A model generated the notes under the pieces. That model was not told where the DNA came from, ran no database searches, and was given only the letters and a program-made list of their open reading frames with translations. Both the position numbers and the translations under genes were made by a program. Shown piece after piece: positions 1 to 1,794 of a stretch of 56,760 nucleotides of DNA. Source of the stretch: a virus (lineage: Duplodnaviria > Heunggongvirae > Uroviricota > Caudoviricetes); the IMG/VR virus record IMGVR_UViG_3300038499_000012, positions 64,001 through 120,760 of that record, one strand, 5' to 3'. Positions within the stretch are counted from its first letter, which is position 1. Each line of letters starts with the position of its first letter.

Positions 1-598
1 TAAGATCGAGATTCCTACTACAGACTCCGAAATCACCCTGATACTTAAAACAGGTCATCGACGATCCGTCAATTTTCACGGAAACGTAGAAAGATTTCCC
101 CTGGTAGAACGAGAGTTCTTCAAGAAGATTTTGAATACGTTCCTCGTCCGTCTTAGGAATGTACCCAGGGAAAGCCCCTCTAACCTCACCAGCCAGGCAT
201 GCTGGCACGGGGGCCTCATAGAGACGAATACCTAATAACTCGGAGACATCTTCTCCTACAGCCATTCCTACGCACTCTGGGAACACGGATAAAGGCATGG
301 CGAGTCCTTGAGAGATCTGTCCGAGTTTCCGAGCTGTTTTGAGTCTGTATCCGAGTTTCTCTATTCCCTCCACGATCATCTTCTTAGGTGACGACCCTTT
401 AGCTAAAAATTCATAACGGGGGAGTACCGGGAGGAAGCTGTCCACCTCATGATAGACACAGATGTCACCCTGCTTAAAATCTGTTTTCAGGGCTACACAC
501 TGCCAACCACGAACCTTCACCAGGCAGATGTTGTCCGCGCCTTCAATGGTAAGGACCTCTTCTATAGTTTCGATTGTCGCAAGCTTTCTCACGGACAT
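1..598 (-). CDS. RNA ligase, DRB0094/DraRnl-like family (3' end runs off the window; not in the supplied ORF track)
   Basis: Manual translation from ATG at 598, with AGGAG upstream: MSVRKLATIETIEEVLTIEGADNI...YHEVDSFLP...YEFL...GYRLKTARKLGQISQGLAMPL...YIPKTDEERIQN...VSVKIDGSSMT...GVCSRN. It has the nucleotidyltransferase motif I KxDG and the RKLA / GQISQGL / KTDEERIQN motifs I recognise from this family. Confidence 0.88.
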   Translation of the reverse strand, partial: MSVRKLATIETIEEVLTIEGADNICLVKVRGWQCVALKTDFKQGDICVYHEVDSFLPVLPRYEFLAKGSSPKKMIVEGIEKLGYRLKTARKLGQISQGLAMPLSVFPECVGMAVGEDVSELLGIRLYEAPVPACLAGEVRGAFPGYIPKTDEERIQNLLEELSFYQGKSFYVSVKIDGSSMTCFKYQGDFGVCSRNLDL

Positions 599-609
599 AC
601 TCCTGATTA

Positions 610-888
610 TTACGGTAATCCATCAACACAGATGCATTCGTTATGCTCACACTTTGGACACGGAAGGTTGGTACGCTTCACCGCAGGGACTTCCATTAAA
701 CTACTCTGATTTTTTAAGGTAGGATCTACCGGCTCCCCTAATACCCATCGCATGGCATATCTGCACGTACAGTCAATACAATAGAGATCGTCATCTTTAG
801 GCCATATAGGACAAAGTTTGGGATTGTCTGTTTCTTGAGCTTTACTACACGCCTTTATAGCGTTCCTGATTTCTGTTTCAGTCTTCAT
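610..888 (-). CDS. Hypothetical Cys-rich protein (CPxW, CxxCxC, CxxC...CxC; possible Zn binder)
   Basis: 92-aa ORF co-oriented with neighbours and ending 11 nt before the ligase ATG. Confidence 0.6.
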   Translation of the reverse strand: MKTETEIRNAIKACSKAQETDNPKLCPIWPKDDDLYCIDCTCRYAMRWVLGEPVDPTLKNQSSLMEVPAVKRTNLPCPKCEHNECICVDGLP

Positions 889-1042
889 GATTTGTGCCCT
901 CTAGGGATGTTATTTCTATAATACCTTCATGTTCTAAGTCAGAGTTGTCAATGTCCAGGAAATGAGCTGATAGATTATTGAGCAACACGTCCAGGTCCTC
1001 GGCTTCTAATATGGTATCGGCAACGAATCGGAATTTTGCCAT
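878..1042 (-). CDS. Small acidic hypothetical protein (54 aa, MAKFRFVADTILEAEDLD...)
   Basis: Manual translation. AAGG upstream of the ATG; overlaps the start of the next ORF and fills the gap in the operon. Confidence 0.5.
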   Translation of the reverse strand: MAKFRFVADTILEAEDLDVLLNNLSAHFLDIDNSDLEHEGIIEITSLEGTNHED

Positions 1043-1066
1043 TAGACCTTTTTCTCTTCGACAGTA

Positions 1067-1261
1067 TTAGCGGGGGCGCTCCTTTTTCTTGTACTCAATA
1101 ATCTTTACACAGCCACCCTCTGGGGTGAATAACGTGTCTACATGTAAAATGTGACTAGACTTTATGAGTATGATTTCATTCAAACCATATTGTTCTCTAA
1201 CAATTTCATAGCGATTACACATCAGAGTCGCGATCAAAAGTATGAGAAGAAATATTCTCAT
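1067..1261 (-). CDS. Small hypothetical protein with hydrophobic N-terminus (64 aa, MRIFLLILLIATLMCN...)
   Basis: The non-tRNA part of track ORF 1067..1498. No clear RBS. Confidence 0.35.
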   Translation of the reverse strand: MRIFLLILLIATLMCNRYEIVREQYGLNEIILIKSSHILHVDTLFTPEGGCVKIIEYKKKERPR

Positions 1262-1272
1262 AAATAAATTAT

Positions 1273-1344
1273 TTGGCGCGAGAGGACTCGAACCTCTAAA
1301 TAGCAGGACCAAAACCTGCTGGCTTGCCATTTGCCGACGCGCCA
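1273..1344 (-). tRNA. tRNA-Gln(UUG), CCA not encoded
   Basis: TGGCGCG/CGCGCCA acceptor stem, anticodon arm GCAGG-TT-TTG-GT-CCTGC, T-arm AGAGG-TTCGAGT-CCTCT. Confidence 0.95.
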
Positions 1345-1350
1345 GAAAAA

Positions 1351-1426
1351 TGGTCGGAGTGACTGGATTTGAACCAGCGACGTCTTGGTCCCGAACCAAG
1401 CGCCCTACCAACTGGGCCACACTCCG
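1351..1426 (-). tRNA. tRNA-Pro(CGG), CCA encoded
   Basis: CGGAGTG/CACTCCG-A-CCA, anticodon arm CTTGG-TT-CGG-GA-CCAAG, T-loop TTCAAAT. Confidence 0.97.
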
Positions 1427-1428
1427 AG

Positions 1429-1504
1429 TCGGAGCGATCCGATTTGAACGGATGGTCCCTGCCACCCCAAGGCAGTGCCTTAGACCAGACTGGGCCACGC
1501 TCCG
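1429..1504 (-). tRNA. tRNA-Pro(GGG), CCA not encoded
   Basis: CGGAGCG/CGCTCCG-A, anticodon arm CTGCC-TT-GGG-GT-GGCAG, T-arm ATCCG-TTCAAAT-CGGAT. Confidence 0.95.
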
Positions 1505-1534
1505 AAAAACAAAAAGGCCCTCTTTCGAGGGCCT
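1505..1534 (-). terminator. Intrinsic terminator (attenuator helix 3:4) immediately upstream of the first tRNA
   Basis: Minus strand AGGCCCTC-GAAA-GAGGGCCT followed by TTTTGTTTTT, which abuts base 1 of tRNA-Pro(GGG). Confidence 0.9.
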
Positions 1535-1569
1535 AGATTCACGACAAAACTATTCGCAGGCCCTCGGGC

Positions 1570-1614
1570 TTAGATGACTCCTGGCTGCGGTTGGGGGTTC
1601 CTGCGAGTGTTCAT
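1570..1614 (-). CDS. Putative leader peptide MNTRRNPQPQPGVI (probably leaderless)
   Basis: ATG AAC ACT CGC AGG AAC CCC CAA CCG CAG CCA GGA GTC ATC TAA. The ATG lies 7 nt after the -10 box and has no SD sequence. Confidence 0.75.
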   Translation of the reverse strand: MNTRRNPQPQPGVI

Positions 1615-1621
1615 GTTTCAT

Positions 1622-1650
1622 AGTATACATCAAGACTGGTCAGATTTCAA
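1622..1650 (-). promoter_or_regulatory. Sigma70-type promoter for the leader/tRNA operon
   Basis: TTGAAA-N17-TATACT (-35 at 1650-1645, -10 at 1627-1622). Confidence 0.8.
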
Positions 1651-1653
1651 GGT

Positions 1654-1794
1654 TTATTTTCCAAGAGGCAATGCCCGAAGCAACTCAAGTAGACTCAGTA
1701 GTAGGACAGCAATCCATAACGGAACCTTCCCCATAGCCGTTCCTACCGTCATTACGAAAGCAGCAATCGCCAGAATCAGCAAGACTGTAAGCAT
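1654..1794 (-). CDS. Small two-helix membrane protein (46 aa; not in the ORF track)
   Basis: AAAAGGAG RBS 6 nt before the ATG. MLTVLLILAIAAFVMTVGTAMGKVPLWIAVLLLSLLELLRALPLGK. Confidence 0.75.
   Translation of the reverse strand: MLTVLLILAIAAFVMTVGTAMGKVPLWIAVLLLSLLELLRALPLGK

Follow-up and report, generated by a model that had tools for sequence, protein, structure and literature searches.

Introduction

In the trpL, hisL, pheL, leuL, thrL, and ilvL attenuators of Escherichia coli, a short promoter-proximal open reading frame (ORF) carries the codons that are sensed, the transcript can form overlapping 1:2, 2:3, and 3:4 helices, an intrinsic terminator precedes the regulated genes, and the stop codon is placed so that a ribosome that has finished translating blocks the antiterminator; the trpL frame has 14 codons. 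A leader-peptide attenuator of similar size (pheM, ~14 codons) controls the E. coli pheST operon for phenylalanyl-tRNA synthetase in response to slow decoding of the leader's own codons. Here, we analyze a locus whose predicted anatomy is that of a trp/his/pheST-type attenuator and which lies directly before three tRNA genes in a 56,760-nt stretch of viral DNA (the window), corresponding to bases 64001–120760 of the 120,760-base IMG/VR virus record IMGVR_UViG_3300038499_000012 (CheckV completeness estimate 26%). The source is a large uncultured phage, and BLAST searches identified no close relative among GenBank phages. Our best reading of the locus, to which we assign a probability of roughly 0.58, is that a ribosome-mediated (leader-peptide) transcription attenuator gates an operon encoding tRNA-Pro(GGG), tRNA-Pro(CGG), and tRNA-Gln(UUG). 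The phage probably makes these tRNAs, together with an RNA ligase, mainly when ribosomes decode proline and glutamine codons slowly.

In its predicted anatomy, the locus shares with the E. coli amino-acid attenuators each of the features listed above. It differs from them in being phage-borne and in having tRNAs rather than biosynthetic enzymes as the regulated genes, so that the quantity sensed would be decoding capacity rather than amino-acid supply. Moreover, its leader has no Shine-Dalgarno sequence, alternates two amino acids, and uses a different codon for each tRNA isoacceptor. Like pheST, it would place a component of the translation apparatus under leader-peptide attenuation, but the pheM attenuator controls a synthetase, responds to one amino acid, has a normal ribosome-binding site, and is chromosomal. 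T-box riboswitches also act by transcription antitermination and also report the state of a specific tRNA through codon–anticodon pairing; unlike the system proposed here, they bind uncharged tRNA directly without a ribosome, exceed 200 nt, and contain conserved Stem I and T-box motifs. We considered and rejected a T-box riboswitch at this locus, as Rfam searches matched only tRNA at E values up to 1 and the leader is just 110 nt long.

Phage tRNA genes are usually treated as fixed gene content that matches codon usage or replaces tRNAs destroyed in infection, and control of their expression has, to our knowledge, been little studied. The tRNA region of phage T4 also encodes small stable RNAs of unknown role, which are cotranscribed and released by processing, and we know of no leader ORF, antiterminator, or codon match in that region. 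A first-pass annotation of the window, made without database searches, was not aware of any described attenuator of this kind on a phage tRNA cluster; we likewise found none in the literature, nor any description of tRNA genes controlled by leader-peptide attenuation.

Results

Predicted anatomy of the leader

All leader coordinates are read on the minus strand, which also carries all long ORFs of the window. We refer to the 149 nt from promoter through terminator as the promoter-leader-terminator unit and to the 110 bases before the tRNA genes as the switch. The elements on which the first-pass annotation had based an attenuator are all present at the positions it gave (Table 1): the promoter with its 17-nt spacer, the ATG and the 14-codon ORF with its Pro-Gln-Pro-Gln-Pro run, the terminator arms with a U-tract that ends at base 1 of the first tRNA, the second copy of terminator arm 4 (1565–1558), and the helix between the leader coding region and the sequence overlapping this copy.

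The promoter is the joint best match within the first 6 kb of the window, and both of its hexamers are identical in five of five sequences (the window and the relatives L009, L022, L010, and L011). The ATG at 1614–1612 lies seven bases past the –10 hexamer, which is the usual distance to +1, and transcription is predicted to start at A1614 or C1615. No Shine-Dalgarno sequence was found before the leader ORF; translation would therefore have to be leaderless, given a +1 position at A1614. An alternative 23-codon frame beginning at the ATG at 1621 was considered and rejected, as it begins inside the promoter discriminator and both L009 substitutions are non-synonymous in it.

The five codons of the Pro/Gln run are, in order, cognate to the phage's own tRNA-Pro(GGG), tRNA-Gln(UUG), tRNA-Pro(CGG), tRNA-Gln(UUG, by wobble), and tRNA-Pro(UGG). 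The anticodons bear out the earlier assignment of the first three codons to the three tRNAs directly downstream, and tRNA-Pro(UGG), encoded elsewhere in the phage, is an exact match for the fifth codon, CCA. Four of the five codons are thus exact cognates of the phage's four tRNAs, and CAG is read by the UUG anticodon through wobble only.

The terminator has a G+C-rich stem of 8 bp, and its last U adjoins base 1 of tRNA-Pro(GGG). In a scan of the gene strand of the 120.8-kb record for G+C-rich stems of at least 6 bp followed by a T-rich tail, it was the only terminator with a perfect stem. There is no room for a promoter between this terminator and the abutting tRNA gene, and the tRNAs would therefore be made by read-through only. 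The octamer GAGGGCCT, which forms arm 4, is present both at 1522–1515 and at 1565–1558, where it belongs to segment 2; it has five copies on the gene strand of the record. The antiterminator (2:3) comprises 9 bp between 1566–1558 and 1534–1526, with C1566–G1526 as the ninth pair. The competing helix 1:2 is lengthened by pairing of CCC 1595–1593 with GGG 1563–1561, and the leader stop codon lies 4 nt upstream of segment 2. Outside the window, a second G+C-rich hairpin with a GAGGGCCT/AGGCCCTC core lies before the next gene (genome 62109–62135; L004:4109–4135); it has a 12-bp stem and an 11-nt loop and is followed by ATTTAT.

Table 1. Features of the locus. Positions refer to the window unless given as genome positions.
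Feature	Position	Strand	Details	Basis
Sigma-70-like promoter	1622..1650	-	TTGAAA 1650-1645, 17-nt spacer, TATACT 1627-1622	10/12 match
Leader ORF (predicted)	1570..1614	-	14 codons, MNTRRNPQPQPGVI + TAA (1572-1570)	sequence reading
Segment 1	1600..1606	-	TCGCAGG (codons 3-5); pairs with CCTGCGA 1560-1554	minimum-free-energy folds
Putative regulatory codon run	1582..1596	-	CCC CAA CCG CAG CCA (Pro Gln Pro Gln Pro)	sequence reading
Segment 2	1554..1566	-	CGAGGGCCT (1566-1558), containing exact copy of terminator arm 4; overlaps CCTGCGA (1560-1554)	
Intrinsic terminator	1505..1534	-	AGGCCCTC (1534-1527), GAAA loop, GAGGGCCT (1522-1515), U-tract TTTTTGTTTTT (1514-1505)	
tRNA-Pro (anticodon GGG)	1428..1504	-		tRNA search
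tRNA-Pro (anticodon CGG)	1351..1426	-		tRNA search
tRNA-Gln (anticodon UUG)	1273..1344	-		tRNA search
Three small ORFs and 5' part of RNA ligase gene	2..1259	-	ORFs 1259-1067, 1042-878, 888-610; RNA ligase from 598 to window edge	
Fourth tRNA, tRNA-Pro (anticodon UGG)	genome 63395-63476 (L004:5395-5476)	-	just outside window, ~1.8 kb downstream, behind RNA ligase gene	
Upstream neighbour, outside switch	1654..1794	-	conserved 46-residue two-helix membrane protein; stop codon 3 nt before -35 hexamer	

These elements suggest the following course of events. Host RNA polymerase would start at or next to the ATG at 1614 to give a leaderless transcript, and a ribosome would translate the 14 codons while the polymerase advances. 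When charged Pro-tRNA and Gln-tRNA are plentiful, the ribosome would reach the stop codon, where it would either cover the GAGGGC of segment 2 or leave and allow helix 1:2 to form; with either outcome, the 3:4 terminator would form and transcription would end one base before the first tRNA. When decoding of CCC, CAA, CCG, CAG, or CCA is slow, a ribosome stalled over segment 1 would allow the 9-bp 2:3 antiterminator to form, with read-through into the tRNA genes. As the products of the operon read the very codons that test for them, the circuit would be a negative feedback on the capacity to decode proline and glutamine codons.

Helix stabilities and ribosome geometry

Calculated energies are about –13 to –19 kcal/mol for helix 1:2, –16.7 kcal/mol for helix 2:3, and –16.6 kcal/mol for helix 3:4. 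Hence, the three mutually exclusive helices are nearly equal in stability, as one would expect of a switch. Left free, the leader is predicted to form helix 1:2 together with the terminator (–38.1 kcal/mol, z = –3.1). With arm 4 left out (nt 1–88), the minimum-free-energy fold is the antiterminator.

We then imposed ribosome footprints on the fold. The first-pass annotation had proposed that a ribosome stalled at the Pro/Gln codons would free segment 2 and that one at the stop codon would cover it, and the constrained folds agree on both counts. With codon 7 or 8 in the A site, the pair probability of the antiterminator at equilibrium rose from 0 to 0.23–0.41; with the ribosome at the stop codon, GAGGGC of segment 2 was covered and the antiterminator probability was 0. 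Footprint arithmetic for codons 7–11 in the A site shows that segment 1 is always at least partly masked and that segment 2 is never reached.

The same three-helix architecture is significant regardless of the ORF, and a terminator/antiterminator switch could in principle be set by something other than a ribosome: a phage or host RNA-binding protein, the anticodon loop of a tRNA bound to the exposed CCCCAA in a T-box-like manner, or a small ligand. CCCCAA could pair with six bases, UUGGGG, in the anticodon loop of the phage tRNA-Pro(GGG), and an RNA-handling gene, the RNA ligase, is encoded in the same genome. We nevertheless judge a non-ribosomal switch unlikely. No T-box, riboswitch, or other Rfam family of this kind was matched at E values up to 1, the leader is far shorter than a T-box, and we saw no T-box-like bulge that could receive a tRNA 3' end. 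In addition, the positions of the start codon, the stop codon, and the codon run relative to segments 1 and 2 suit a ribosome and would otherwise be coincidences.

Chance estimates

We shuffled the 80 nt preceding the terminator 200,000 times with dinucleotide composition preserved. Arm 4 was copied over 8 nt in 0.16% of the shuffles (1.6e-3), and 3 shuffles (1.5e-5) had both this copy and a 7-bp helix with upstream sequence that overlapped it. Across all six frames of the 120.8-kb genome (241,520 frame positions), there are only five runs of at least five Pro/Gln codons that the phage tRNAs can read, the leader itself being one of the five; the expectation of such a run in the leader is ~1e-3. 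The preferred proline codon of the phage is CCT (43%), and the leader uses the non-preferred CCC, CCG, and CCA once each, a set with a chance of ~0.04 in any order.

These estimates bear on a further account of the locus, namely that an ordinary terminator of the upstream operon happens to lie beside a chance promoter-like site, that nothing is regulated, and that the patterns were picked after the fact. Promoter-like sites in the 6-kb region are no more numerous than in shuffled sequence (9 versus 9.6), the octamer GAGGGCCT is somewhat over-represented in the genome given its five gene-strand copies, and very many windows were inspected, so that patterns with a probability of 1 in 1000 are to be expected. 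Nonetheless, the account is very improbable: it must contend with the probability of the helix layout multiplied by ~1e-3 for the codon run, with the conservation of an intergenic unit far beyond that of adjacent synonymous sites, and with the same layout in an unrelated phage, both of which are described below.

Conservation among close relatives

Relatives were located via neighbouring genes. Counting the window, four leader variants were found, all closely related. Between the window and L009, the promoter-leader-terminator unit differs at 3 of 149 positions, compared to 19 of 138 in the adjacent 46-codon gene (Fisher p = 2e-4), where 13 of 46 third positions differ (28%). The unit is ~10 times better conserved than neighbouring synonymous sites and, to judge from this comparison, is under strong purifying selection. 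The single L009 change within the ORF, AGG to AGA, is synonymous in the 14-codon frame and non-synonymous in the frame from 1621. The 7-mers that pair segment 1 with CCTGCGA are intact in the window, L022, L010, and L011, and one end pair is lost in L009. In L022, the ORF and all helices are intact; two bases before the ATG are substituted, and three indels of one base affect the linker, a stem end, and the U-tract. ARAGORN does not call the tRNA-Pro(GGG) of L022 (L022:480–540), whose T-arm is short by ~20 nt, although the L022 leader is intact; the truncated tRNA is either a pseudogene or an assembly error in this 593-nt contig.

The lineage of L010 and L011, which occurs in at least five samples, retains the promoter, the first six codons, helix 1:2, and a 7-bp terminator. 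Its Pro/Gln run has been replaced by a ~40-nt segment that carries a repeated hairpin, and its segment 2 contains a central mismatch that leaves an antiterminator of –7.9 kcal/mol. The two tRNA-Pro genes persist only as fragments, and tRNA-Gln alone remains. Loss of the proline codons thus accompanies loss of the proline tRNAs, in one event that is confounded by the insertion. The repeated hairpin is a 29-nt element, T6-CCCGC-TCAY-GCGGG-AGTTGAATA, present in two copies (L010:1667–1695 and 1783–1811, and also in L011); one copy stands in place of the leader codon run and the other lies within the remains of the tRNA-Pro genes, one scrap of which is inverted. This element may be a small mobile or recombinogenic element.

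The divergence of the unit resembles that of the adjacent tRNA-Gln and tRNA-Pro(GGG) genes, and conservation of every base, as in a structural RNA, could also mean that the locus is an independent small-RNA gene, with a product of ~105 nt, a promoter of its own, and a terminator that acts constitutively. Transcription of the tRNAs would then depend on leak-through or on a polymerase that arrives from upstream and ignores the hairpin, and the ORF and codon match would be incidental. A promoter and terminator ~105 nt apart are the usual shape of a small-RNA gene, the lack of a Shine-Dalgarno sequence fits such a gene, small stable RNAs are also encoded in the tRNA region of T4, and in the L010/L011 lineage the codon run is gone but the promoter, 5' end, helix 1:2, and terminator have survived. 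We regard a small RNA as rather unlikely, however. It leaves unexplained why arm 4 recurs exactly at a site where it can compete with the terminator, why the stop codon falls 4 nt ahead of this second copy, why codons and anticodons match, and why the one strong terminator in 120 kb directly abuts genes that lack a promoter. Furthermore, L010 and L011 carry other sequence in place of the C-rich loop, the natural seed candidate and the sole long single-stranded stretch, and no Rfam family was matched.

Searches beyond these relatives yielded no further leader. More distant homologues of the 46-residue neighbour protein (L014–L021) have other genes behind them, with no leader or tRNAs. A search of viral contigs with the terminator sequence matched only terminators of an unrelated phage (L002/L003), pattern searches for the promoter and for segment 2 found no further leader relatives among viral, metagenome, and genome contigs, BLAST against GenBank phages found none, and protein-anchored searches of viral contigs with the 123-residue and 898-residue neighbours found none either. 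A pattern search with tRNA-Gln identified one distant phage (L013), in which the tRNA has no leader and follows an ordinary terminator and a promoter, in that order.

A similar layout in phage CcrColossus

A similar arrangement occurs in Caulobacter phage CcrColossus (JX100810.1), where a 31-codon ORF (MMTYRNNVRQIRVRQFNLAGRSHVGDGGSEG) is followed by a strong terminator and then by a block of tRNA genes for Tyr, Phe, Val, Ile, Ile, Gln, Gln, Asn, and Arg (the Tyr and Phe anticodons were read from the sequence). Fourteen consecutive residues of this ORF (YRNNVRQIRVRQFN) are drawn solely from the seven amino acids of the block (Tyr, Phe, Val, Ile, Gln, Asn, Arg), and a 9-nt copy of the terminator 3' arm lies inside the ORF. 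Both loci thus combine a promoter, a mini-ORF rich in the amino acids of the tRNA block, an upstream copy of the terminator 3' arm, a strong terminator, and tRNAs. The CcrColossus leader is longer and multivalent, with 31 codons and seven amino acids compared to 14 codons and two amino acids in the present leader. Its match is also one of amino acids and not of every codon, as GTG is used although the tRNA-Val anticodon is GAC, whereas the present leader is codon-exact. The two leaders show no sequence similarity and are probably of independent origin, and an independent case raises the prior for an attenuation mechanism.

Downstream and neighbouring genes

The RNA ligase downstream of the tRNAs was assigned by matches to PHROG 968, Pfam PF09414/PF21189, and TIGR02306, and a DNA polymerase and an ATPase are also encoded in the neighbourhood. 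No promoter-like site was found on the gene strand between position 1622 and the start of the window. For this reason, the small ORFs and the RNA ligase gene probably share the gated transcript with the tRNAs, and tRNA-Pro(UGG) probably does as well.

At 82 nt and with a long variable arm, the tRNA-Pro(UGG) is atypical of tRNA-Pro; the relative L005 has a normal 73-nt tRNA-Pro(UGG) directly after the RNA ligase stop codon. Also outside the window, a tRNA 5' half (acceptor strand, D-arm, and start of the anticodon stem) followed by nine T and no 3' half is present at genome ~63540–63578 on the minus strand. It sits right after the RNA ligase stop codon, in a ~100-nt stretch between the ligase and tRNA-Pro(UGG) that is absent from L005. 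Between tRNA-Pro(UGG) and the next hairpin, the opposite strand carries a Cys-rich ORF of 291 residues (L004:4556–5431, plus strand, outside the window), within a stretch of ~1.3 kb that L005 also lacks; this ORF may be a mobile endonuclease-type insertion beside the tRNA.

The small ORF at 1067–1259 (minus strand) starts 13 nt past tRNA-Gln; its N-terminus (MRIFLLILLIATLMC) resembles a signal peptide and ends in Cys, similar to that of a lipoprotein. It is not conserved in L009, which has a different sequence behind the tRNA. The 46-residue protein encoded upstream of the promoter has two hydrophobic helices and an invariant C-terminus, ELLRALPLG(K/R). It forms 11 clusters in metagenomic phages, in varied gene neighbourhoods, and matched no Pfam or PHROG family.

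Discussion

Multiple lines of evidence support a leader-peptide attenuator in front of the phage tRNA genes. First, the predicted anatomy places a start codon, sensed codons, stop codon, and three overlapping helices in the order known from trp, his, and pheST. Second, the helix energies are balanced. Third, the codons of the run match the anticodons of the phage's own tRNAs. Fourth, the unit is conserved. Finally, a comparable layout is present in CcrColossus. In these respects, the attenuator proposed by the first-pass annotation stands. Its functional part, consisting of a start at the ATG, translation of the ORF, and read-through that responds to tRNA, stays at the level of prediction; we infer the transcription start, translation, response to tRNA supply, and extent of the operon from the sequence.

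Several observations weigh against this attenuator. The lack of a Shine-Dalgarno sequence makes translation hinge on a predicted start exactly at the A of the ATG. Because the codon run is C-rich, it encodes proline in more than one frame, which inflates chance matches. The comparative support is limited to four leader variants from close relatives. The first-pass annotation had suggested checking whether leader codons co-vary with the downstream anticodons and whether the helices show compensatory changes. Pro codons and Pro tRNAs were lost together in L010 and L011, in the single confounded event described above. Compensatory base changes are absent among the four variants, and the helices are therefore backed by statistics and invariance and not by covariation. 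In the L010/L011 lineage, moreover, the promoter, helix 1:2, the terminator, and tRNA-Gln are all retained although the codon run has given way to a single CAA, which implies that some of the unit is maintained where the proposed sensing is lost. No similar modules were seen when we scanned a jumbo-phage locus with 26 tRNAs (L007), and the design is therefore not general. Lastly, the terminator dominates at equilibrium in every footprint scenario. The model thus requires kinetic coupling between ribosome and polymerase, like the trp attenuator, and since classical attenuators are likewise decided kinetically, the equilibrium preference is not decisive against it.

Attack by an anticodon nuclease is a speculative trigger for slow decoding of proline and glutamine codons; the design is accounted for just as well if the phage simply adjusts its own supply of tRNA by negative feedback. 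The RNA ligase suggests a link to defence systems that target tRNA. It is possible, though doubtful, that the switch is the sensor of a "tRNA supply plus repair" operon that acts as a translation-coupled counter-defence, and that it belongs to a broader class of leader-peptide attenuators of phage tRNA genes that has yet to be described. If so, cleavage or depletion of host tRNA-Pro and tRNA-Gln by a defence nuclease or toxin would slow Pro/Gln decoding and thereby open the terminator, and one transcript would yield a full replacement set of proline and glutamine tRNAs together with an RNA ligase able to reseal cut tRNAs.

Leader-peptide attenuation is a known principle, and the new aspect here is its proposed application to phage tRNA genes. 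Among the cases that we examined, the present leader is the smallest and cleanest version, with 14 codons, two amino acids, and one codon per isoacceptor, and is easily tested. If the leader-peptide attenuator operates as proposed, then the phage measures decoding speed directly and corrects it, and the logic of the trp and his attenuators would be turned on the translation machinery itself.

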